Below, piece after piece: positions 1,731-46,534 of a stretch of DNA of 64,000 nt. Source of the stretch: a bacterium. GTDB taxonomy: Bacteria > Bacillota_I > Bacilli_A > RF39 > UBA660. Each line of letters starts with the position of its first letter. Position 1 is the stretch's first letter. Below the pieces are notes generated by a model that searched no databases, was not told the origin of the DNA, and saw nothing but the letters and a program-made list of their open reading frames with translations. Both the position numbers and the translations under genes were made by a program. The DNA is taken from positions 6,267-70,266 of the forward strand of contig JAQXPH010000031.1 in the NCBI GenBank assembly GCA_029100545.1, in the 5' to 3' direction.

Positions 1731-3977
1731 ATGGAAGAAAAAAATTATAAAAATGTTAAAGTAGTAGCGGTAGTAGCAAGTGCTTTTTTGTTATTTATTA
1801 TTTTCGCGGCAGCATTTGCTTATTTTGGAACATTTAATATTGATTTAAATAATAATGTAGCAGTAAATATTTATGCACAGCAAGGTGGCGCGTCTTCATT
1901 TACAGCAACAGCAGCTCAGCTTAATCTTCAGGTGCCAGCATCTGCGATGAGTCAGTCAAATTCTGAAAGTGGTAATGCAGTACTAGCGGCAGAAAATACA
2001 GCAACATTAAATGTTACATTAAAAGGTGCCGAAGGAATGCTTACAACCTGCACATATAATATTATTTATGAATATGATAATACTTCAGAAACTTATGGAA
2101 ATAGTGTAGCAGTAACAAGTGGAGCAGATAAAGAAATAACTCTACAGGTTAGTGGGGCAAGCAGCACAAGTAATTATTATGAAACAGAAAGAAACTTTAA
2201 TTACTATAGTGGAAGTAATGGAGAAGATACAACTGATGTATGGGAAAGTTCCACCAAAAGATATTTAGTAAAAGAAGCAAAAATAAGTAGTGCAGGAACA
2301 GAAGTAACTTCAGTATGGAATATAACAGGAAGATATTATAATTTAGATGTAAGTCAATCCCAACTAGAAGGAAAAAGTTTTACAGGTAAAATATATGTAG
2401 ATCCAAATTATGATTGTAGTACTAGTGAAGACAAGACACTTTATTCTTTGGTAAGAAAAAAATATAACGAAGGAAATACATTTGTAAAACTTTATGATGG
2501 AGAAGGCTCAGATACCTATGTAAATCCAGTATACTATTATAATGGTGCAGTACAGGATAATAATGTTTTATTTGCAAACTTTTGTTGGAAAATAGTTAGA
2601 ACTACTGATACTGGAGGAGTTAAATTAATTTATAATGGAACGCCAAAAACAACTGCCGAATTAATTCCATTAGAAGAATCACAATATTTAAATTTATCAA
2701 ATGATGCTAGCTACCCATATACATTTGATAGCACTAATAAAACATGGACAAGTACAAATAAAACAGATAGTGCGACAGGTACAATAACTTTTACTGTAGC
2801 AGAAGCAGGAGATTATGTTCTATCATATACTGTTTCTTCAGAGGGAAATTATGATAAAGCAATATTTTATAAAGATGATACAGTACTTGACACTTATAGT
2901 GGTGAAGACAGTGGAAGCATTACTCTAGATGGTCTTACAACCTCAAATGTAATAAAAGTTGAATATACAAAAGATGAATCTGAAGCAAGTGGTAGTGATA
3001 ATGTAGTATTTAGTTTAGGTAAACCATCTGGTAATTCATATTTAAAATGTAATAACACGGGAACTGATTCTCAAATAGGAAAAAGTTCATTTAATAGTAG
3101 TTACACTTCTCCTGCCTATGTAGGCTATATGTATAATACTGTATATACTTCTTCAAATAAATCAATGTCATCATTATCTAATATAGTATTTGGTAATTCA
3201 TTTACATATTCAGGAGGAACGTATACACTCACTGATACAATGGCAGTAGCAACTTTGTCAAGTGGTTATAATACAATAAATAATAATCATTATACGTGTT
3301 TTACTACAGGTACTACTTGTTCGGATTTATATTATGTATATTACACTTCTTCTTATCAGTCATATTATATAACCCTTACGGGTGGTAAATCTGTGGGTGA
3401 TGCTTTAAATGAAATGTTATATGCAGATGATGTAAATAAAACTGATTCTGTTATGAAAACATATATAGAAACTTGGTATGAAAATAATATGACCGCATAT
3501 ACATCATATCTTGAAGATACAACTTATTGTAATGATCGAAGTATAAATGACTTAGGGGGATGGAATCCAAATGGCGGAAGTACAACTGGTTCATCATATT
3601 ATTTACAATTTAAAAATTATAATACAAATTATAGTTTAGTATGTGGTAATGTTACAGATCAGTTTAGAGTAGGAAATACAAAAGCACCACTTAAATATCC
3701 AGTAGGTTTACTTACAGCTCCAGAAGTATGCCTAGCATATAAAGATGCAAGTTATAGTACTTATTATTTAAATACAGGAGAGTATTATTGGCTTGGGTCC
3801 CCTGGCAGCTTTTACGACATCACTGCTTACGGGCGTAACGTCAATAGTTCGGGTAGCATGAGCGTCATCTACCCCGTGTACGATTCTATTGGGGCCCGGC
3901 CGTCCGTTTCCTTAAAACCTGGCACCGGATATATTTCAGGAAATGGGTCATATACTTCACCTTATTTGATAGAATAA
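1731..3977 (+). CDS. DGR variable (target) protein, remote copy, with an N-terminal signal anchor and VR2 at the C-terminus
   Basis: A GGTAGG RBS precedes the start. The N-terminal TM segment ends in the FAYF motif. The C-terminal ~500 aa are about 90% identical to ORF 31567..33732. The GC-rich segment 3786-3912 matches the TR at 33896-34019. Confidence 0.85.
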   Translation: MEEKNYKNVKVVAVVASAFLLFIIFAAAFAYFGTFNIDLNNNVAVNIYAQQGGASSFTATAAQLNLQVPASAMSQSNSESGNAVLAAENTATLNVTLKGAEGMLTTCTYNIIYEYDNTSETYGNSVAVTSGADKEITLQVSGASSTSNYYETERNFNYYSGSNGEDTTDVWESSTKRYLVKEAKISSAGTEVTSVWNITGRYYNLDVSQSQLEGKSFTGKIYVDPNYDCSTSEDKTLYSLVRKKYNEGNTFVKLYDGEGSDTYVNPVYYYNGAVQDNNVLFANFCWKIVRTTDTGGVKLIYNGTPKTTAELIPLEESQYLNLSNDASYPYTFDSTNKTWTSTNKTDSATGTITFTVAEAGDYVLSYTVSSEGNYDKAIFYKDDTVLDTYSGEDSGSITLDGLTTSNVIKVEYTKDESEASGSDNVVFSLGKPSGNSYLKCNNTGTDSQIGKSSFNSSYTSPAYVGYMYNTVYTSSNKSMSSLSNIVFGNSFTYSGGTYTLTDTMAVATLSSGYNTINNNHYTCFTTGTTCSDLYYVYYTSSYQSYYITLTGGKSVGDALNEMLYADDVNKTDSVMKTYIETWYENNMTAYTSYLEDTTYCNDRSINDLGGWNPNGGSTTGSSYYLQFKNYNTNYSLVCGNVTDQFRVGNTKAPLKYPVGLLTAPEVCLAYKDASYSTYYLNTGEYYWLGSPGSFYDITAYGRNVNSSGSMSVIYPVYDSIGARPSVSLKPGTGYISGNGSYTSPYLIE
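3786..3912 (+). repeat. DGR variable repeat VR2 (remote)
   Basis: It aligns with the TR. Most mismatches fall at TR adenines inside AAY codons. It shares the ggcttgggtcccct 5' end and the ggggcccgg 3' GC block, and is 3 nt longer than the TR. Confidence 0.8.
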
Positions 3978-4019
3978 CGGAAGAGGGAAGTAGGTGCCGT
4001 GCGCTTATCACTAGTAAGT

Positions 4020-4043
4020 CCTCGCGAGAACCCTTTCGCGAGG
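4020..4043 (+). promoter_or_regulatory. GC-rich hairpin in the 3' flank of target gene 2 (cctcgcga ... tcgcgagg)
   Basis: This is a perfect 8-bp GC-rich inverted repeat that can be extended to about 10 bp around the loop ACCC. The same element occurs at 33774-33797 after target gene 1. No T-run follows it. Confidence 0.7.
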
Positions 4044-4187: not shown

Positions 4188-5411
4188 ATGAGAAAACGTT
4201 TTAAAGGATTATTATGTTTTATTGCTTTTTTATTAATATTATCTACTATCTTATTTGTCTTTTATTTTATATATACTAAATTAAATAATAATGATGGTGA
4301 TATTAAAATAACAGGTAGTTTATCTATTAATTTTCATGATGGAAATGTAATAGATTTTGATAAGTCAAAAGATACTGTTATAACTATAATAAATAATGGT
4401 AATGAAGGAGTATATTATTATATTGAATTTATAAATTTAAATAGTGAAACAGATATTAATTATTCATTAACTGATAATAATGTTATTAATATAAATGATA
4501 TATTATCTAATCAAAGTGAAATAATATCAAGTTATATTTTTATTGATGCTGGAGAAATACAAAACTATGATTTAAAATTTAGTTCTTCTTCTGAAAATAC
4601 TAAAAGAATTGAAATAAATATTGAAGAAGAAAGTCTTGAAAGTAACTCTTTTGCTGAAACAATATTAAAAAATGATGTTGTAAAAGATAAACCTCTTACA
4701 ATTGTAGGTAAACAGGAAGCTACTACTGATGAAGGTTTAATTGAAGAATCTGATGATTTTGGTTCATCTTATTATTTTCGTGGTAACACTTTAAATAATA
4801 ATGTTTTAATAAATAATTTAAAATTCAAAATAGTAAGAATTAATGGTGATGGTAGTGTTAAACTTGTTTTAGATGAAAATATTGAAAAATTATCTGAATA
4901 TTATGAAGATGGAAACTATAAATTTAAAGAAACTACAATTTATTCAGCACTTAATAGTTGGATAAATGAAAATCTTGGTAAATATTCTTCTTTTTTATCA
5001 AATCAAAAATATTGTAATGATACACTTTTAAATGAAAATACTTTTTATGCTTATACAAGAGTTATGGAAGATAATATACCATCACTTATATGTTTAAGTG
5101 AAAAATTTACGAGTAAGGTTGCTCTTTTAACCGTTGATGAAGTTCTTTTTGCAGGTGCTACCATAAATAATGAAAATAAATCATTTTATCTTTATAATGA
5201 AAATATTACTTCTGATATATATTTAATGACATCAGCAAAATTATTAAATAATACTTATTATCCTTTTGTTTTATCTACTACTGGAAAAATAGAAAGTGAT
5301 GTACCAGGAACTTATTTAAGAAGTGTTAGACCTGTTATAACTATTATTAAAACAGCAATGGTTACTGGAACTGGTACTATAGATGATCCATATATTTTAA
5401 TTGAAAGTTAA
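4188..5411 (+). CDS. non-diversified paralogue of the DGR-target family, a membrane-anchored surface protein
   Basis: An AAGGAG RBS precedes the start and there is an N-terminal TM segment. Family motifs are SSYYFRG, KFKIVRINGDGSVKLV, YCND, ALLTVDEVLFAG and VRPVITI...GTGTIDDPYILI. The region equivalent to the VR is AT-rich and unlike the TR. Confidence 0.8.
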   Translation: MRKRFKGLLCFIAFLLILSTILFVFYFIYTKLNNNDGDIKITGSLSINFHDGNVIDFDKSKDTVITIINNGNEGVYYYIEFINLNSETDINYSLTDNNVININDILSNQSEIISSYIFIDAGEIQNYDLKFSSSSENTKRIEINIEEESLESNSFAETILKNDVVKDKPLTIVGKQEATTDEGLIEESDDFGSSYYFRGNTLNNNVLINNLKFKIVRINGDGSVKLVLDENIEKLSEYYEDGNYKFKETTIYSALNSWINENLGKYSSFLSNQKYCNDTLLNENTFYAYTRVMEDNIPSLICLSEKFTSKVALLTVDEVLFAGATINNENKSFYLYNENITSDIYLMTSAKLLNNTYYPFVLSTTGKIESDVPGTYLRSVRPVITIIKTAMVTGTGTIDDPYILIES

Positions 5412-29807: not shown

Positions 29808-29837
29808 TTGACATATAATATTACTTTGTGGTATTAT
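29808..29837 (+). promoter_or_regulatory. candidate promoter of the paralogue/DGR-target operon
   Basis: TTGACA is followed about 18 nt later by TATTAT, which is preceded by TGg (extended -10). It lies about 30 nt upstream of the ATG at 29868. Confidence 0.45.
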
Positions 29838-29867
29838 TTTATTAGAGTAGAGAAAGGTATTTTTATT

Positions 29868-31556
29868 ATGAAATTAAAAGATATAATAATAAAAAATAAA
29901 TATAAATTATTAACAATTATAGGTGTTTTATTAACTTTTTCAATATTACTTGCAATATCTTATGCTTTTTTTGGAAGGGTTATAGAAAATACAAATACTA
30001 ATGCAATATCTGAAATAAATACATCTTATTATTCATTTACTGCAACAGGTGATATCAATATATCACTTACTTTAAATGAAGAATTATTAGGAGTTGAAAG
30101 TGCAAATAATACAGTTCCTGCGTTTACATCAAATGGTGGTAATTTAAATTTAAATTTAACTACTTTAGATAGTGCAAAAGATATTTCTTGTACTTATGAT
30201 ATTGTTTATGAACCAGTTGATGCTATAAATTCCTCAAACAATATAAATGAATTTACAATAGCAGGTGAGTCAACATCTGGTTTATCTTTTAATGAAACTA
30301 ATGTAGTAGGATCAAATCCAGTTATTCTTATATCTAATGCTTTAATTAAGACAAATGCATCTTCTTCACTTACAACATTAGATTCTTGGAATTTTACAAT
30401 TAATTTTTATAATTTAAATGCTATTCAAGATTATATTGTTGGTACAAATATAAGTGGTAATATTAAACTTGAAAATATTAATTGTGGATTCAATAGTAAT
30501 ATAGAGTATGGCTATGAAACTATTCTTACCCAAAATGGAGGAAAAACTGCAATAGAATCAAAAGGTACACCTAACTTTTTAACATATGAAAAAGGAGTAG
30601 TAGGAATGTATGCAGCAGAAGATGACCTTGGAACTTCTTATTACTTTAGAGGAAAAGTTAATAATAACTGGGTAAAATTTGGAAAATATATAAGTGATAT
30701 GTATTATAATTCAAGTGATAAGACATTATATAATGCATGCCCAGCTGGTGGGTCATGTACAAAGATAGCTTCCTCTGGGAATGAAATGTACTGGCGAATA
30801 ATAAGAATAAATGGTGATAATTCTATAAGAATGATTTATTCGGGAGTAACACCGCCATTAGAAACAAAACAATTTGTTATGGAAGATAACAATTATTCAA
30901 TAACAATTGGTTCGACTCCATTTAATACAAGCGGTGATAAATCAGAATATGCGGGATATATGTATACTTTAGGACAGCAACATGGAACAAGTACAGATAG
31001 TACAATAAAAACATATTTAGATAATTGGTATACATTTACAAATCTATCAACATATTATGCAAAAGATTTAATAGCAGATCAAATATATTGTAATGATAGG
31101 AATACATCAAGTACATGGGAATCAACACCCGCTGATATAATGGCTTATTCGTCTGGAGAAAGACTAAGCAATGGAACACCAAGTTTAAAATGTTCAATTA
31201 AAGAAGATAGATTTACGGTAAATGATGTAGTTAATGGCAATGGGAAATTAACCAATCCTGTAGGTTTAATAACGATTGATGAGTTGTTATATGCAGGTAC
31301 TAACCAAGAAAACGCAAATAGTGCATGTTATTTATATACCGGATCAAATTATTGGTCTGGTTCACCATTTGGATTTGTAAAAAGTTATGCTTTTACAAAT
31401 ATTATCAAAGAAGATGGAACTTTAAACGTCGATAGTGTTGAACAGAATATTGGAGTTCGCACAGTAATTTCTCTATCATCTAATGTTAAGTTATATGGTT
31501 CAGGGTTATATAGTAATCCATATGTTATTGAAAATCCAAATTTAGATGTCCAGTAG
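29868..31556 (+). CDS. non-diversified paralogue of the DGR-target family, a secreted or surface protein
   Basis: The signal-anchor segment ends in ISYAFFG. Family motifs are GTSYYFRG, YWRIIRINGDNSIRMIY, YCNDR, PVGLITIDELLYAG, NYWSGSP and GVRTVISL...GSGLYSNPYVI. The region equivalent to the VR is AT-rich. The ORF is open from TTG 29808. Confidence 0.8.
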   Translation: MKLKDIIIKNKYKLLTIIGVLLTFSILLAISYAFFGRVIENTNTNAISEINTSYYSFTATGDINISLTLNEELLGVESANNTVPAFTSNGGNLNLNLTTLDSAKDISCTYDIVYEPVDAINSSNNINEFTIAGESTSGLSFNETNVVGSNPVILISNALIKTNASSSLTTLDSWNFTINFYNLNAIQDYIVGTNISGNIKLENINCGFNSNIEYGYETILTQNGGKTAIESKGTPNFLTYEKGVVGMYAAEDDLGTSYYFRGKVNNNWVKFGKYISDMYYNSSDKTLYNACPAGGSCTKIASSGNEMYWRIIRINGDNSIRMIYSGVTPPLETKQFVMEDNNYSITIGSTPFNTSGDKSEYAGYMYTLGQQHGTSTDSTIKTYLDNWYTFTNLSTYYAKDLIADQIYCNDRNTSSTWESTPADIMAYSSGERLSNGTPSLKCSIKEDRFTVNDVVNGNGKLTNPVGLITIDELLYAGTNQENANSACYLYTGSNYWSGSPFGFVKSYAFTNIIKEDGTLNVDSVEQNIGVRTVISLSSNVKLYGSGLYSNPYVIENPNLDVQ

Positions 31557-31566
31557 AAAGGAATAT

Positions 31567-33732
31567 ATGAAAAATAGAAATATAATATTAAGTGTTATTG
31601 TTTTATTACTTATACTTTGTACAGGTATATCTGTTTCATATGCCTTTTTTAAAATATCTAAAAGTACTCAAGATCCAAATATTACAGTAAATATTGATAA
31701 TGTTCCAGCATGTGTTTCTCTTCAGATGACTAATACTAATATTGTTTCAATTACAAATGAATATGCAGTTCCTATAACAGATGCTAAAGCATTATCTTCC
31801 GATGTATATAAAACTTCTTTTGATGTTATTAATAATTGTGACTCTTCAAAAGATTTAACTATATTACTTGCTCCTACTAATAGTTCTACTATGCCAGTAA
31901 GTGCATTAAAATATGCTTTAGTAGAGCAAAGTGAAGTGCCTTCAAGCGGAACATTAATTTCAGATAAATTAGGTTTAAATAATGGGACAAAACTTGAACT
32001 TAAACAAAAATATAATCAAGATATATCAATAGGTTATAGTGTAGGTAATAAGACAGTACCCGCTAAAACGACTAAAAGTTATAATTTATATTTATGGATA
32101 GATGAAAATGAAGGTGGTCTTGGACAAAATATTACTATGAATAAGTTATTTGAAGGATATATTGTACTTGGTTCAGGTTCGTTAGGAACTCCGCCTACGC
32201 CACTATATGATACTATTCAAGCAAAATATAATGAAGGAAATACATTTGTAAAACTTTATGATGGAGAAGGATCAGATACTTATACAAACTCAGTATACTA
32301 TTATAATGGTGCTGTTGAAGATAATAATGTTTTATTTGCAAACTTTTGCTGGAAAATGGTTAGAACTACCGATACTGGAGGCGTTAAATTAATTTATAAT
32401 GGAACGCCAAAAACTATTTATGAATCTGTTAATCCATTAGAAGAATCACAATATCTAAATCTATCAAATGATGCAAACTATCCATATACATTTGATAGCA
32501 CTAATAAAACATGGACAAGTACAAATAAAACTAATAGTGCAACAGGTACAATAACATTTACTGTAGCAGAAGCAGGAGATTATATACTATCATATACTGT
32601 TTCTTCTGAAAAAAATTATGATAAAGCAATATTTTATAAAGATGGTACAAAGCTTGGCACTTACAGTGGTTCTGTAAGTGGAACAATTAATCTAGATGGT
32701 CTTACAACTTCAAATGTAATAAAAGTTGAATATACAAAAGATTCATCAGCAGCAAGTGGAAGTGATAATGTAGTCTTTAGTTTAGGTAAACCCTCTGGTA
32801 ATTCATATTTAACATGCAATAACACGGGAACTGATTCTCAAATAGGTACAAGTAAGTTTAATAGTAGTTATACTTCTCCTGCATATGTAGGTTATATGTA
32901 TAATACAGTGTATACGTATTCATCTAAATCAATGTCATCATTATCTAATATAGTATTTGGTAATTCATTTACATATTCAGGAGGAACGTATACACTCACT
33001 GATACAATGACAGTAGCAACATGGTCAAGTGGTTATAATACAATAAATAATAATCATTATACGTGTTTTACTACAGGTACTACCTGCCCATCTTTATATT
33101 ATGTATATTATACTAATTCTTCAACTGCATATTATATAACACTTACGGGTGGTAAATCTGTGGGTGATGCCTTAAATGAAATGCTATTTGCTGATGATGT
33201 AAATAAAACTGATTCTGCTATAAAAACATATATAGAAACTTGGTATGAAAATAATATGACAGCATATACATCATATCTAGAAGATACAACTTATTGCAAT
33301 GATCGAAGTATATTAAATTTAAATAGCTGGAATCCAAATGGAGGAGATGTAAGAAGTTATTTACAATTTAAAAATTATAATACAAATTATAGTTTAGTAT
33401 GTGGTAGTGTTACAGACCAGTTTAGAGTAGGAAATACAAAAGCACCACTAAAATATCCAGTAGGTTTACTTACAGCGCCAGAAGTATGGCTAGCTTATAA
33501 AGACGCAAGTTATAGTACATATTATTTAAATACAGGAAATCTTTATTGGCTTGGGTCCCCTTACGACTTCGACTACTATAGTGCAGTCGGGCGTAGCGTC
33601 GATAGTTCGGGTCTCATGAGCAACTACTACGTGAACGACTCTGGCGGGGCCCGGCTGGCCGTTTCCTTAAAACCTGGCACCGAGTATATTTCAGGAGATG
33701 GGACATATACTTCGCCATTTTTGATAGAATAA
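31567..33732 (+). CDS. DGR variable (target) protein, cassette-proximal, with VR1 at the C-terminus
   Basis: The ATG follows an AAAGGA RBS; an in-frame ATG at 31546 is an alternative start. The signal anchor ends in VSYAFF. The family motifs are present. The C-terminal GC-rich segment 33544-33667 matches the TR. Confidence 0.9.
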   Translation: MKNRNIILSVIVLLLILCTGISVSYAFFKISKSTQDPNITVNIDNVPACVSLQMTNTNIVSITNEYAVPITDAKALSSDVYKTSFDVINNCDSSKDLTILLAPTNSSTMPVSALKYALVEQSEVPSSGTLISDKLGLNNGTKLELKQKYNQDISIGYSVGNKTVPAKTTKSYNLYLWIDENEGGLGQNITMNKLFEGYIVLGSGSLGTPPTPLYDTIQAKYNEGNTFVKLYDGEGSDTYTNSVYYYNGAVEDNNVLFANFCWKMVRTTDTGGVKLIYNGTPKTIYESVNPLEESQYLNLSNDANYPYTFDSTNKTWTSTNKTNSATGTITFTVAEAGDYILSYTVSSEKNYDKAIFYKDGTKLGTYSGSVSGTINLDGLTTSNVIKVEYTKDSSAASGSDNVVFSLGKPSGNSYLTCNNTGTDSQIGTSKFNSSYTSPAYVGYMYNTVYTYSSKSMSSLSNIVFGNSFTYSGGTYTLTDTMTVATWSSGYNTINNNHYTCFTTGTTCPSLYYVYYTNSSTAYYITLTGGKSVGDALNEMLFADDVNKTDSAIKTYIETWYENNMTAYTSYLEDTTYCNDRSILNLNSWNPNGGDVRSYLQFKNYNTNYSLVCGSVTDQFRVGNTKAPLKYPVGLLTAPEVWLAYKDASYSTYYLNTGNLYWLGSPYDFDYYSAVGRSVDSSGLMSNYYVNDSGGARLAVSLKPGTEYISGDGTYTSPFLIE
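33544..33667 (+). repeat. DGR variable repeat VR1
   Basis: It is 124 nt and colinear with the TR. About 19 of about 21 mismatches sit at TR adenines, and 14 of the 16 TR AAY codons are altered. It encodes YWLGSPYDFDYYSAVGRSVDSSGLMSNYYVNDSGGARLAVS. Confidence 0.9.
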
Positions 33733-33773
33733 CGCAGTAATAAGTAGGGTGCCAACACTTTACACTAGAAAGT

Positions 33774-33797
33774 CCTCGCGAAAACCCTTTCGCGAGG
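33774..33797 (+). promoter_or_regulatory. GC-rich hairpin in the 3' flank of target gene 1 (cctcgcga(aa)-accc-(tt)tcgcgagg)
   Basis: It is an 8-10 bp GC-rich inverted repeat with a 4-nt loop, about 105 nt downstream of the VR1 end. It is the same as the element at 4020-4043. Confidence 0.7.
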
Positions 33798-33895
33798 CGC
33801 CGAAGTAAAAAAATAACGCTAAGATAAATAAGAGGGAAAAATATTGGGTTAAACATAAAGTTTAATCTAGGATTATGTCGTAATAAAAGTATAGC

Positions 33896-34019
33896 TTTTG
33901 GCTTGGGTCCCCTAACAACTTCAACAACAATAATGCTAACGGGCGTAACGTCAATAGTTCGGGTAACATGAGCAACAACAACGTGAACAACTCTAACGGG
34001 GCCCGGCTGACCATTTTCT
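33896..34019 (+). repeat. DGR template repeat (TR)
   Basis: It is intergenic and GC-rich relative to its surroundings. In the VR frame it reads FWLGSPNNFNNNNANGRNVNSSGNMSNNNVNNSNGARLTIF*, with 16 AAC/AAT codons. Its 3' end (ccattttc) differs from both VRs (ccgtttcc), as expected for IMH* versus IMH. Confidence 0.9.
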
Positions 34020-34193
34020 AATAATAATTTAATCTTTGCTAAATTTATAATATTTAATATTATGGTGAAATTTAGCATTTCATAATTGGAAACAGATATA
34101 ATTCTATGAACTTATGTTCTAAAAATATATGTAGTGTAGGCTATGCTAGTTATTTAATAATTAGCATAGCAATTTATTACTAAAGGATAAAGG

Positions 34194-34550
34194 ATGAATA
34201 GTAATAATGATTTTATTTTATTAAAAAGAGTTAATATATTTAATGATTATATTAATCAGTATGTTGTTTCATTAATACCAAGTGTTCATCGAGATATTAA
34301 AATACATTTGCTTGATGAAAGTTATAATTTACTTAAAAATTTATATGAAGCAATATATAATAAAGGCAATATTAGAAATAAATATATAATAGAACTACTT
34401 GTTTGTATTTCACTTATAGATGGTTTATTAGGTAGTATTATGAAATATAATAAAAATAAACATATTATTAAAGCTATTAATTTATTAACTGATATAAAAA
34501 ATATGACTTATGCATGGAAGGCAAATATTAGTGAAAAAGAAGATAAATAA
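34194..34550 (+). CDS. avd: Avd-like accessory variability determinant (four-helix-bundle protein)
   Basis: The protein is 118 aa, basic and predicted all-helical. Its pattern (...LIPSVHRDIKIHLLDES..LLKNLYEA ... ELLVCISLIDGLL ... LLTDIKNMTYAWK) resembles the four-helix-bundle family found next to DGR RTs. It lies immediately upstream of the RT and overlaps it. Confidence 0.75.
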   Translation: MNSNNDFILLKRVNIFNDYINQYVVSLIPSVHRDIKIHLLDESYNLLKNLYEAIYNKGNIRNKYIIELLVCISLIDGLLGSIMKYNKNKHIIKAINLLTDIKNMTYAWKANISEKEDK

Positions 34551-35997
34551 TATATATTATAAATATTTAACATTTGATAATTTATTAAATTGCTATAATA
34601 TTGTAAAAAAAACTTGTAAGAATAAAAAAGCAATTAATAGATTTGAAATGAATAAATATACTAATATTTATAATATATATAAATCTTTATATAATAAAAC
34701 TTATAAACCATATAAATATACATTATTTATGATATTTGAACCAAAACCAAGACTTGTTATGAGTCAAACTATATCTGATAAAATAGTAAATCATTTTGTA
34801 AGTAAATATTATTTAATACCTTTTTTATCTAATAAATTAATTTATAGTAATGTAGCAACTAGAATAAATAAAGGAACTAAACTTGCAAATAAATTAGTGA
34901 TTAAATATATAAATAATATAAGAATGAATAATAAATTTGAAAATATATATACTTTAAAAATTGATATAAGTAAATATTTTTATAATATTAATCATAAAAT
35001 ATTAATTAATTTATTAAAAAATGATTTTTTAGATAATGATGTAATTAATTTAATTAAAATTATACTTAATGAAACAAATAGTAATTATATAAATGAAAAA
35101 ATTAAAATATATAATCAAAAATATAAATGTGATATACCATTATATAAAAAAGATATTGGTTTAAGTATTGGAGCAATGTCAAGCCAGTTTCTTGCAATTT
35201 ATTATTTAAATAAATTAGATCACTATATAAAAGAAATACTTAATTGTAAATATTATATTAGATATATGGATGATTTTATTATACTAAGTAATAATAAAAA
35301 TTATTTAAAATATGTTTTTAAAAAAATAGAAAAACAAATTAATTATTTTGATTTAAAAGTTAATCCTAAAAGTAATATATATAATTTAAAATATGGAATA
35401 AATTTTTTAGAATATAGATATAAAATAATTAATAATAAGTTTTATATATTATATAAAAAAGGAAATATAAAAAGAATTAATAATAAATTAAAATTTTTAA
35501 AGAAATATGATTTATTAAAATATTATAAATCAAAAGCAAGTTATAATGGATATTTAAAAATAAGTGAAAAGGAATTTAAAATGAAAAGTATTGAAAAATA
35601 TGATTATTATAAAAATAATAATAAAAATGTAATAATATTTATAAAAGAGGGAGTTTTTTATAAAACCTATAATAATGATGCAATTATTATGTGGAATTTA
35701 TTTAAATATAAAATAAATAATAATAATTTATCATTTAGTATAAATACAAAAGATAAAGTTTTTAATTATTTAAATGAATTAAATATAGGTTATTTAGTTA
35801 TAGGTAATGATAATATTTATGTAAAAGGAAATGATGAAGTTTATAATTTATATAATAAGTTATCTAATATTTATTATGATAAATATAATAAAATAAGTAA
35901 GTTAAATGAATTAGTTGATAATTTATTAAATAAAGATATAAATAATTATGAAATTATATTAAATTTTTTAAATAAATTAAAAAAGGAAGTATTATGA
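34510..35997 (+). CDS. DGR-type reverse transcriptase with a C-terminal MutS-domain-I-like extension
   Basis: RT motifs are FEPKPRLVMSQTISDKIV, ATRINKGTKLA and KIDISKYFYNINH. The DGR-hallmark motif 4 is IGAMSSQ and the catalytic box is YIRYMDDFIIL. The start may be GTG 34531 rather than ATG 34510. The C-terminal ~140 aa lie beyond the RT core. Confidence 0.9.
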   Translation: MHGRQILVKKKINNIYYKYLTFDNLLNCYNIVKKTCKNKKAINRFEMNKYTNIYNIYKSLYNKTYKPYKYTLFMIFEPKPRLVMSQTISDKIVNHFVSKYYLIPFLSNKLIYSNVATRINKGTKLANKLVIKYINNIRMNNKFENIYTLKIDISKYFYNINHKILINLLKNDFLDNDVINLIKIILNETNSNYINEKIKIYNQKYKCDIPLYKKDIGLSIGAMSSQFLAIYYLNKLDHYIKEILNCKYYIRYMDDFIILSNNKNYLKYVFKKIEKQINYFDLKVNPKSNIYNLKYGINFLEYRYKIINNKFYILYKKGNIKRINNKLKFLKKYDLLKYYKSKASYNGYLKISEKEFKMKSIEKYDYYKNNNKNVIIFIKEGVFYKTYNNDAIIMWNLFKYKINNNNLSFSINTKDKVFNYLNELNIGYLVIGNDNIYVKGNDEVYNLYNKLSNIYYDKYNKISKLNELVDNLLNKDINNYEIILNFLNKLKKEVL

Positions 35998-36857
35998 AAG
36001 AAATTAATAATTTTGAAGAATATCTTAAATATGAACTTAATTATTCAGATTATACTATTAAAGAATATATTTTACATGTAAAAGATTTTTTAAAATATTT
36101 AGAAAATAATAAAATAAATTATTTAAATATTAATAAAGAAGATATTATAAAATATTTAAAATATTTAGATAATGAAAAATTATCAAATAGAAGTATTGGA
36201 ACAATACTTTCTAGTTTAAGATGTTTTTATAATTATTTACTTGATAATGGTTTTGTTAAAGTAAATATATTTAAACTTATTAGTAATCCTAAAATGGATA
36301 AAAAACTACCTAATTTTTTATCATATGAAGACTTGCAAAAAATACTTGATAGTATTACAGATAAAGATGTTTTATCTTTAAGAAATAAAATGATTATAGA
36401 ACTTTTATATGCCACTGGAATAAGAGTTAGTGAACTAATTAATATTAAAATAAGTGATATTGATTTTAATAATAAAACTATTAAAGTAATGGGTAAAGGT
36501 AAAAAAGAAAGAATTGTCTTTTTTGGAGATTATGCTTTAGATGCAATAAATATTTATTTAAAAAATAATCCTTATAATAATGAGTATTTAGTTTTAAATA
36601 GTAAAGGAGAAAAAATTACTGTTAGGGGAGTAGAACTTATTATTGAAAAAATAAGTAAAATGGCATGTATTAATAATAATGCTCATCCTCATACATTTCG
36701 TCATACTTTTGCTACTCATATGCTTAATAATGGTTGCCCACTTAAAAGTGTTCAAGAATATTTAGGCCATAGTTCATTATCTTCTACTGAAGTATATACT
36801 CATATAACTAATGATTATATTAAAGAAGAATATTTAAAAAATATACCTAGAAAATAG
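35994..36857 (+). CDS. tyrosine site-specific recombinase, XerC/XerD-like
   Basis: The ATGA start/stop overlaps the RT. The N-terminal core-binding domain is followed by catalytic residues in ATGIRVSEL, GKGKKER, HPHTFRHTFATHML and LGHSSLSSTEVYTH. Confidence 0.85.
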   Translation: MKEINNFEEYLKYELNYSDYTIKEYILHVKDFLKYLENNKINYLNINKEDIIKYLKYLDNEKLSNRSIGTILSSLRCFYNYLLDNGFVKVNIFKLISNPKMDKKLPNFLSYEDLQKILDSITDKDVLSLRNKMIIELLYATGIRVSELINIKISDIDFNNKTIKVMGKGKKERIVFFGDYALDAINIYLKNNPYNNEYLVLNSKGEKITVRGVELIIEKISKMACINNNAHPHTFRHTFATHMLNNGCPLKSVQEYLGHSSLSSTEVYTHITNDYIKEEYLKNIPRK

Positions 36858-45488: not shown

Positions 45489-46534
45489 TTAATAGATTAA
45501 ATAAAAAAGGTGTTATTTCAATATCTGTTATATATTCATTTTTCTTAGTTTTTTGTTTGCTATTAGTTTTAATTTTAACAACTTATACAAATAATAGAAT
45601 TAATTTTAAAATGCTTAAAAATGATATTAAGAAAAAATATATTAGTAGTGAAGAAATAACTACATCTTTAATTGGAAGTAAAATTGATACTACTTTAATG
45701 CCTTATACTGACGATGATATGGGAACAACATATTATTATAATGGCCGAGTTGATAACAATTATATTAAATTTGGTGATAATATGTTATGGCGTATTATAA
45801 GAGTTAATGGTGATGGTTCTATTAGATTAATATATGAAGGTACAATTGGTAATAGTTCTTATAATTCTTCTTCAAATGATGCAATTTATGTTGGTTATAA
45901 ATATAGCCTTTATAATAATCATGGTTTAGGAAATAATAGTACAATTAAAGATTATTTAGATACTTGGTATAATAATAATTTAAGTGAAACTAAATATGAA
46001 AATTATATTGTAGGATCAATTTTTTGTACAAATCGTAATGCATTTAGTGATCCTAATAATCATAATATAACTAATAATGCTGATGGTTATGGAACAAGTA
46101 CCCAATACTTTGAAAATTATAATAAAACTGTATCTAACTTAGAATGTAGTAATTCAGATGACAAATTTTATATAAATTCTTCTTATAATTCAAATGGAAT
46201 ACTTGATTATCCAATAGGTTTACTTTCATATGAAGAAGCAGTTTTAATGGGATTAAATAAAATAACTAATAATCCAAATAGTTTTTTAACTAATGAAAGT
46301 GATTATTGGACTTTAACACCAAGTCATTATAATGATGGTGCTTATAATTATTATATCAGTTCAAATGGAATACTATCTAATAATAGAAAGGTTTCTGATT
46401 CTATTGCAGTAAGACCAGTTATTTCTATTTCTGCGAACACACCTGTTATTGGAGTAGGAACTAAAAAAAATCCATATACTTTTTCATTAGGTGGAAGAAA
46501 ATTTAATAATATATGTTCAGGTGGTGCTATATGA
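45485..46534 (+). CDS. pilin-operon member carrying the DGR-target-family globular domain (non-diversified)
   Basis: Its start overlaps the upstream pseudopilin gene. The N-terminus is a degenerate pilin-like segment (NKKG|VISIS...). Family motifs are GTTYYYNGRVDNNYIKFGDNMLWRIIRVNGDGSIRLIY, PIGLLSYEEAVLMG, DYWTLTP and AVRPVISI...GVGTKKNPYTF. Confidence 0.75.
   Translation: MINRLNKKGVISISVIYSFFLVFCLLLVLILTTYTNNRINFKMLKNDIKKKYISSEEITTSLIGSKIDTTLMPYTDDDMGTTYYYNGRVDNNYIKFGDNMLWRIIRVNGDGSIRLIYEGTIGNSSYNSSSNDAIYVGYKYSLYNNHGLGNNSTIKDYLDTWYNNNLSETKYENYIVGSIFCTNRNAFSDPNNHNITNNADGYGTSTQYFENYNKTVSNLECSNSDDKFYINSSYNSNGILDYPIGLLSYEEAVLMGLNKITNNPNSFLTNESDYWTLTPSHYNDGAYNYYISSNGILSNNRKVSDSIAVRPVISISANTPVIGVGTKKNPYTFSLGGRKFNNICSGGAI

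Follow-up and report, generated by a model that had tools for sequence, protein, structure and literature searches.

A very probable chromosomal diversity-generating retroelement with a MutS_I-like extension of its reverse transcriptase in an RF39 bacterium

We analysed a 64,000-nucleotide (nt) stretch of DNA, referred to as the window, from a bacterium of the RF39 lineage (Bacillota_I; Bacilli_A; RF39; UBA660; contig JAQXPH010000031.1 of assembly GCA_029100545.1); positions count from its first letter. The locus under study contains a large gene (target gene 1) with a repeat (VR1) near its 3' end, an intergenic copy of this repeat (TR), a small avd-like gene and the gene of a reverse transcriptase (RT), all on the plus strand (Table 1). 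VR1 is very probably the variable repeat (VR) of a chromosomal diversity-generating retroelement (DGR), and TR is its non-coding template repeat.

Adenine-specific differences between the repeats

VR1 and TR were aligned without a gap over 122 nt at an offset of 352 nt (BLAST E=6e-27). VR1 lies inside the open reading frame (ORF) of target gene 1 and makes up codons 667-708 of 728, with 21 further codons after it. The TR copy is intergenic and ends 175 nt upstream of avd. A formal alignment with a per-base tally gave 21 mismatches, 19 of which fall on TR adenines (n=37; A>G 11, A>T 7, A>C 1); the hypergeometric probability that at least 19 of 21 mismatches fall on adenines is P=3.1e-10. Read in the target frame, 14 of the 16 AAY codons of TR were altered in VR1. 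Of the two non-adenine differences, one, at 33585, is T>A and synonymous (GCT>GCA), and the other, at 33665, is T>C (TTC>TCC). An earlier sequence-only reading of this DNA had claimed by eye that the mismatches are almost confined to TR adenines, with 14 of 16 AAY codons changed and these same two changes elsewhere; its counts were reproduced exactly. It had also described the repeats as GC-rich islands, and VR1, TR and VR2 (a second variable repeat in the window) indeed contain 58%, 48% and 56% GC, whereas the window as a whole has 23% and the RT gene 13%.

The change at 33585 is the sole non-adenine change within the mutagenised part of VR1, and it has no counterpart in the orthologous VR of the related contig L006. 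It may have arisen by point mutation or through an error of the RT at a base other than adenine.

We then compared the 3' ends of the repeats, where a DGR is recognised by a GC-rich initiation of mutagenic homing sequence (IMH) in the VR and a non-identical IMH* in the TR. The block GGGGCCCGGC is found in all three repeat copies, starting at 33646, 33998 and 3891. Three bases past it both VRs read CCGTTTCC and TR reads CCATTTTC. The CCGTTTCC ending is common to VR1, VR2 and the VRs of L006, L007 and L008, and the CCATTTTC ending is also present in the TRs of L002, L004, L005, L008 and L009; both endings are kept in L008/L009, which represent a related species with an RT only 64% identical. The related contigs were drawn from ENA gut metagenome assemblies, which we take from their record names to be pig and human gut samples; ERZ28573692, ERZ28573628 and ERZ28573663 are examples of assemblies with this lineage. 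The three intervening bases are polymorphic in TRs and VRs alike (TGA, TGG or CGT), and TR and VR are invariably told apart at two positions: 34013, with A in TR and G in VR, and 34017, with T in TR and C in VR. Of the adenine mismatches, the two nearest the 3' end (34010 and 34013) fall within the IMH region and look like fixed or allelic differences, not fresh mutagenesis; because the intervening bases are polymorphic, the mismatch at 34010 in particular may be allelic rather than mutagenic. The suggestion that a shared GC-rich block with differing ends marks an IMH/IMH* distinction was upheld by its recurrence in other strains and in the species with the 64% identical RT, and the repeats appear to carry the GC-rich IMH and non-identical IMH* expected of a DGR.

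The IMH* alleles observed were GGGGCCCGGCTGACC in the window (33998-34018), ..GGCTGGCC in L002 (200-225) and L005 (1-25), and ..GCCCGTCC in L004 (1-45). The IMHs of the VR1 type and of the VR2 type are similar to different TR alleles, and the one difference that holds throughout is CCATTTTC in TRs versus CCGTTTCC in VRs.

Table 1. Features of the element in the window.
Feature	Position	Strand	Remarks
Target gene 2	1731-3977	+	748 aa; 30 kb upstream; 85% identical to target 1 over the C-terminal 510 aa
VR2, second variable repeat	3788-3912	+	24 substitutions relative to TR and one extra NNC codon
Box and hairpin after target gene 2	3994-4043 (hairpin 4020-4043)	+	Same box and hairpin as after target gene 1
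Target gene 1	31546-33732	+	728 aa; N-terminal hydrophobic anchor; C-terminal putative DUF6273/C-type-lectin-like domain carrying VR1
VR1, putative recipient of mutagenised cDNA	33546-33667	+	21 mismatches relative to TR
Putative IMH of VR1	33646-33666	+	GGGGCCCGGC TGG CCGTTTCC
Conserved GTGCCAACAC box and hairpin after target gene 1	33749-33797 (hairpin 33774-33797)	+	10-bp stem, ACCC loop; 41 nt past the target 1 stop
Conserved sequence/hairpin just 5' of TR	33846-33881	+	GGrTTAAAC..GTTTAATCTAGGATT; kept in L008, L010, L012, L018
TR, non-coding template repeat	33898-34019	+	37 adenines, 35 before the IMH* core; 16 AAY codons in target frame
Putative IMH* of TR	33998-34018	+	GGGGCCCGGC TGA CCATTTTC
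Structured TR-avd spacer	34020-34193	+	Hairpin 34038-34076; invariant single-stranded 34086-34111; long hairpin 34132-34182
avd-like accessory gene	34194-34550	+	118 aa; isoelectric point 9.1; overlaps the RT ORF start
DGR reverse transcriptase	34510-35997	+	495 aa from ATG; Pfam RVT_1 E=2.8e-13
IGAMSSQ motif	35167-35187	+	aa 220 of RT
YMDD motif	35263-35274	+	aa 252 of RT
C-terminal RT extension, MutS domain-I-like module	35545-35994	+	aa 346-495 (~150 aa); core Pfam match 35590-35724

Proteins and RNA structures of the element

The RT, whose database copy begins at GTG 34531, has the Bordetella phage DGR enzyme bRT as its best PDB match (8ub7, E=1.2e-19); the matches to group II and retron RTs reach 1e-6. 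DGR-clade RTs are recognised by (I/V/L)GxxxSQ in motif 4 together with YxDD (PMC3521204), and the IGAMSSQ and YMDD motifs and the bRT match assign the RT, at the level of sequence, to this clade. A scan of genome contigs with this RT as query found only a distant RT (21% identical). The RT gene, 13% GC in all, is extreme even for this genome: the 1-kb bin 35001-36000 contains 12% GC with a GC skew of +0.57.

The C-terminal extension of the RT scored 22.9 bits against Pfam MutS_I (gathering score 20.6). MutS_I was matched by 24 of 24 homologous extensions tested, with a best E=4e-7, and a profile of the extension matched MutS residues 13-56 in the PDB weakly (E about 0.7-1). The window extension contains the motif G-V-F-Y-K-T-Y-N-N-D-A, conserved among homologs as G-[SV]-F-Y-K-T-[YF]-x-x-D-A; the corresponding motif of E. 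coli MutS is G-D-F-Y-E-L-F-Y-D-D-A. Compared with the G-x-F-Y-E motif of MutS, the mismatch-stacking Phe (Phe381 in the 495-aa RT) is retained and the Glu is replaced by Lys. The fused RT has 1297 homologs at E<=1e-3 among 8000 candidates scored, and a MutS_I match is on record for many of the 120 RT homologs listed. IMG/VR contained no close relative of the RT; the best match there was 31-39% identical and had no C-terminal extension. Three related RTs with a weak MutS_I C-terminal extension were described by Wu et al. (2018; PMC5758913), who also defined a separate 'MSL' accessory class (Architecture D). No ORF of the window corresponds to a separate MSL gene; the last 150 aa of the RT form the MutS_I-like module instead, so the element falls outside the MSL class. 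A literature search found no functional test of the RT-fused module; the fusion is barely noted in the literature, and its clade is large and little studied.

Sequence-level searches gave no assignment for the avd-like protein: no Pfam or NCBIfam family was significant and an Avd profile found nothing among PDB sequences, so a fold comparison was needed. The AlphaFold2 (AF2) model is a four-helix bundle with a predicted local distance difference test score (pLDDT) of 91. Foldseek aligned it with Avd in 8ub7/8ub8 and 4dwl and with 2rld/2gsc at template modelling (TM) scores of 0.75-0.83 and a probability of 1.00 each, and one homolog of the protein matched Pfam bAvd (E=9e-4). The gene is thus predicted from the model to encode a small basic four-helix bundle of the Avd type.

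No Pfam or NCBIfam model was significant for the target proteins. An AF2 model of the last 343 aa of target 1 (pLDDT 87) gave a sole significant PDB match, to the Thomasclavelia ramosa IgA peptidase 9qa6 (E=4e-4), of which the N-terminal domain, possibly the part matched, is annotated as DUF6273 (PMC12402451). The matches of this 343-aa model, as opposed to the VR subdomain alone, to canonical C-type lectins were weak (E >=1.6, probability 0.04-0.12). Among the viral models of BFVD it matched DUF6273 and DUF1566 phage proteins; a C-type-lectin-like nature has been reported for DUF6273 domains in the targets of phage DGRs (PMC10743442). Target protein homologs form a large family with the flanks ..YWLGSP and G[VA]RP.VSLKPG.. 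conserved around a hypervariable stretch, and this family includes sets of proteins that are identical except in that stretch. By analogy the membrane-anchored target protein is presumably surface-exposed. Non-diversified paralogs of the target family lie at 29808-31556, 4188-5411 and about 45725-46477. They have the same C-terminal frame and no TR match, and two of them directly adjoin the two DGR targets.

VR2, in target gene 2, belongs to the same DGR system. In a codon-aware alignment with TR, 18 of its 24 substitutions are at adenines and 6 are C/T transitions at non-adenine sites. At 3861-3875 it reads GTC ATC TAC CCC, four NNC codons opposite AAC AAC AAC of TR. An (AAC)4 template allele, or slippage on the AAC run, followed by adenine mutagenesis could account for the extra codon; both indels opposite AAC and the presence of one 'noisy' target next to a clean one have been described for DGRs (PMC5758913).

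The stop codons of both targets are followed after 41 nt by the box GTGCCA(N)CAC and then by a hairpin, about 106 nt from the VR. Box and hairpin were also found at L008 7002-7048, L010 7183-7229, L012 7203-7250 and L018 1773-1815. The hairpin apex GAAA-ACCC-TTTC is invariant across related DGRs, and the lower stem covaries (CCTCGCG, GTCCGGG, TCGCACG or GCACACG with their complements). In a covariation test 100% of cells were paired and 5 of 10 pairs had compensatory double changes; slid controls paired at 16-54%. A metagenome pattern scan recovered 20 hairpin loci, 15 of them directly after a target-domain homolog and ahead of avd and RT where the contig allows. By analogy the structure is a candidate target-recognition hairpin or cruciform; for the target hairpin of Bordetella, both the structure of the stem and the sequence of the loop are important. 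The hairpins of phage DGRs have a 7-10 bp stem and a 4-nt GRNA loop and lie 4-34 nt from the VR (PMC3240598), and Wu et al. found such inverted repeats in only 34% of DGRs (PMC5758913), so a hairpin is not a strict DGR requirement. An alternative role as an intrinsic terminator of the plus strand was unconvincing, as no T tract follows the hairpin.

Conserved structures also flank TR. The segment just 5' of TR probably forms the 5' portion of the DGR RNA; its stem is invariant and so shows no covariation. The spacer between TR and avd folds with z=-3.3 as a single sequence. RNAalifold on seven related DGRs gave 39 pairs over ~150 nt, 10 of them with compensatory changes, and the invariant single-stranded stretch reads TTGkGAAACAGryAyAATTCTATGAAC. 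This TR-flanking conserved RNA is common to DGRs with RTs 56-64% identical. The spacer is likely an analogue of the Bordetella 'Sp' RNA, which would serve as ribonucleoprotein scaffold and priming region. No Rfam family covered the hairpin, the sequences flanking TR or the spacer, and a promoter scan was uninformative in DNA so AT-rich.

A mechanism can be proposed that starts from what is observed directly, namely the anatomy, the adenine-specific TR/VR differences, the identities of RT, Avd and target, and the natural variation confined to TR-adenine positions (see below). Its further elements, that is cDNA synthesis, spacer priming, the roles of the hairpin and the MutS-I-like module, and surface display, are modelled on the DGRs of Bordetella phage, Legionella and Bacteroides. 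TR would be transcribed with its conserved structured flanks, and a complex of RT and Avd-like protein would copy it into cDNA, misincorporating opposite template adenines. The cDNA would replace VR1 at the 3' end of target gene 1 and, at least in the past, would also have replaced VR2 in its paralog. Directionality would come from the IMH (..CCGTTTCC) in the VRs versus the IMH* (..CCATTTTC) in TR, with a probable contribution of the conserved hairpin downstream of each target. The outcome could be as many as roughly 15^16 variants of the protein, differing on the ligand-binding face of the putative DUF6273/C-type-lectin-like domain. Host MutS has been reported to restrict retrohoming 5-10-fold in Bacteroides, which makes it plausible that the MutS_I-like module handles or shields mismatched heteroduplex. 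A more specific proposal, which we put forward tentatively and regard as doubtful, is that the module attaches to the cDNA/VR heteroduplex with its dense mismatches and keeps host MutS away from it, overcoming the 5-10-fold restriction, and that the hairpin apex docks the RT at its targets, remote ones included.

Variation between strains and rival explanations

Hypervariability in populations, which the sequence-only reading had proposed to look for opposite TR adenines, was assessed by comparing independent metagenome assemblies between samples, not reads within one sample. Between VR1 and the ortholog in L006, which is from an independent metagenome, 24 of 122 nt differ, 22 of them opposite TR adenines (P=2e-12). 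The flanks of the ortholog match those of the window at 100/100 nt upstream and 189/190 nt downstream of the VR. The syntenic DGR of the related species (L008/L009) has 15 of 15 TR/VR mismatches at adenines. A sister DGR was recovered from six samples, in which its RT is identical. In this DGR 24 columns of the VR vary, all 24 opposite TR adenines, and the 300-nt upstream flanks are identical; one VR haplotype is common to 5 of the 6 samples. Contig L007, at first regarded as carrying the VR2 ortholog, belongs to a strain that is more distant and has a VR of another length, and it was left out of the tallies. An exact-pattern scan of JGI metagenomes for the VR/TR frame of this species found nothing. 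The expected pattern was thus recovered in assemblies, with variation almost confined to TR-adenine positions between near-identical flanks, and it supports natural mutagenic retrohoming as the apparent source of the variation. The interpretation of the repeats as products of DGR adenine mutagenesis gains support from the tally, the RT, the Avd, the IMH/IMH* pair and this cross-assembly variation together.

Several observations weigh against this picture of an active DGR. The comparison was between assemblies, which makes ongoing activity in this strain no more than likely. The genes of the window and L006 diverge by 5-8% further upstream and thus belong to distinct strains, so the VR difference could reflect one or few old homing events. 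With its 6 non-adenine transitions and extra codon, VR2 may not have been rewritten recently by the present TR, or may no longer be rewritten by it. In L002 (1-2184), whose RT fragment is 95% identical, TR lacks ~33 nt internally (..AACTTCAGCGTCTTCAACATGAGC..) and the RT is split into ORFs of 281 and 138 aa; some lineages can evidently do without the element, which decays there. The hairpin, with its ~106-nt distance from the VR and its ACCC loop, also departs from the 4-34 nt and GRNA loop of experimentally studied phage DGRs (PMC3240598). A fossil DGR, silent in this strain, with VR1 a fixed allele and the adenine pattern a trace of past retrohoming, would fit the non-adenine changes and indel of VR2, the truncated TR and split RT of L002, and the single VR haplotype in 5 of the 6 sister-DGR samples. 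We consider such a fossil unlikely. The window contains intact copies of the RT (with its YMDD and its SQ motif), avd, TR, IMH/IMH*, spacer and hairpin, and VR1 has only 2 non-adenine differences from TR, whereas a long-inactive VR should have drifted like VR2. A recently silenced fossil is the only live rival to our interpretation, by which the DGR appears to be complete, genuine and active at least recently.

The repeats could also be thought to owe nothing to a retroelement, being a duplicated fragment that decays towards A/T or a product of ordinary mutation and gene conversion, as the genome has 23% GC and the intergenic copy is the lower in GC (48% versus 58%). We give this explanation virtually no credence. 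Strand-symmetric GC-to-AT decay predicts equal numbers of TR-T/VR-C and TR-A/VR-G differences, but the counts are 1 and 11, with 7 A/T transversions in addition, and the 11:1 asymmetry rules out AT-pressure decay of a pseudo-copy. The AAC/AAT design of TR is conserved in species with RTs 56-64% identical, the variation between strains is confined to TR-adenine columns, and a DGR-type RT and Avd lie immediately downstream; the explanation is already contradicted. It is likewise highly improbable that reads of a mixed population were collapsed or mis-joined into a chimeric VR. Related contigs (L002, L004, L005 and L007) do often break at the TR/VR repeat, a locus at which assemblers evidently have trouble, but the window runs through target, VR, TR, avd and RT in frame, and the same architecture is seen in the independent assemblies L008, L009, L010 and L012-L017. 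A chimeric VR would, moreover, still mix DGR-generated haplotypes.

Known systems and genomic context

The element shares many features with the DGR of Bordetella phage BPP-1 (mtd-VR/avd/TR/brt): adenine-specific differences in AAY codons, a VR at the 3' end of the target, a GC-rich IMH with a slightly different IMH*, a basic four-helix-bundle Avd, an RT with IGxxxSQ and YMDD, a candidate GC-rich inverted repeat downstream of the target and structured spacer RNA beside TR. Unlike the BPP-1 DGR, it is chromosomal and not phage-borne, is ordered target-TR-avd-RT, has an RT with an extra MutS-I-like domain, and has two targets 30 kb apart with 21 codons after the VR. The BPP-1 hairpin lies 4 nt from the VR and has a GAAA loop, in contrast to the distant ACCC-loop hairpin here.

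MutS-linked DGRs (Wu et al., 2018, PMC5758913; Msl of Legionella/Bacteroides, bioRxiv 10.1101/2024.11.15.621889) similarly combine a module like that of MutS mismatch recognition with an avd-containing DGR, and as in these DGRs no HRDC gene is present. In contrast to the Msl type, the module here is fused to the RT and is not a separate gene, which matches the group of three RTs with MutS_I of Wu et al. The targets resemble DUF6273/C-type-lectin-like DGR targets (phage 'tentaclins', Faecalibacterium prophage, PMC10743442; DUF1566-type) in their Foldseek matches to DUF6273 and weak matches to C-type lectins, and in the W-L-G-S-P and G-V/A-R-P frame around the hypervariable loop. They differ from the phage DUF6273 targets in being cellular, membrane-anchored proteins of 730-750 aa, not phage tail proteins, with non-diversified paralogs adjoining each target.

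As one more DGR the element adds little, such elements being abundant in gut microbiomes. It is valuable as a tidy and complete example of a large chromosomal clade, so far hardly described, in which the RT-MutS-I fusion occurs together with a conserved structured spacer RNA and with a target hairpin of invariant loop and covarying stem. The genome is extremely AT-rich, which makes the functional GC-rich elements easy to see, and the element offers a convenient system for studying DGRs versus mismatch repair, remote target recognition and the minimal DGR RNA.

The window is chromosomal, as pnp, pepF, dnaJ, xerC and tig flank the element, and the order paralog-target-TR-avd-RT ... xerC-tig is kept in L008/L009. 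A phage origin was rejected: the element has no close IMG/VR relative, and its chromosomal synteny is conserved in a related species. L003 (1-3164) contains an RT from the same 90%-identity cluster that has helix-turn-helix (HTH) and Bro-N genes, not xerC-tig, after it; the cassette therefore occurs in a different context in another sample, possibly a mobile one.

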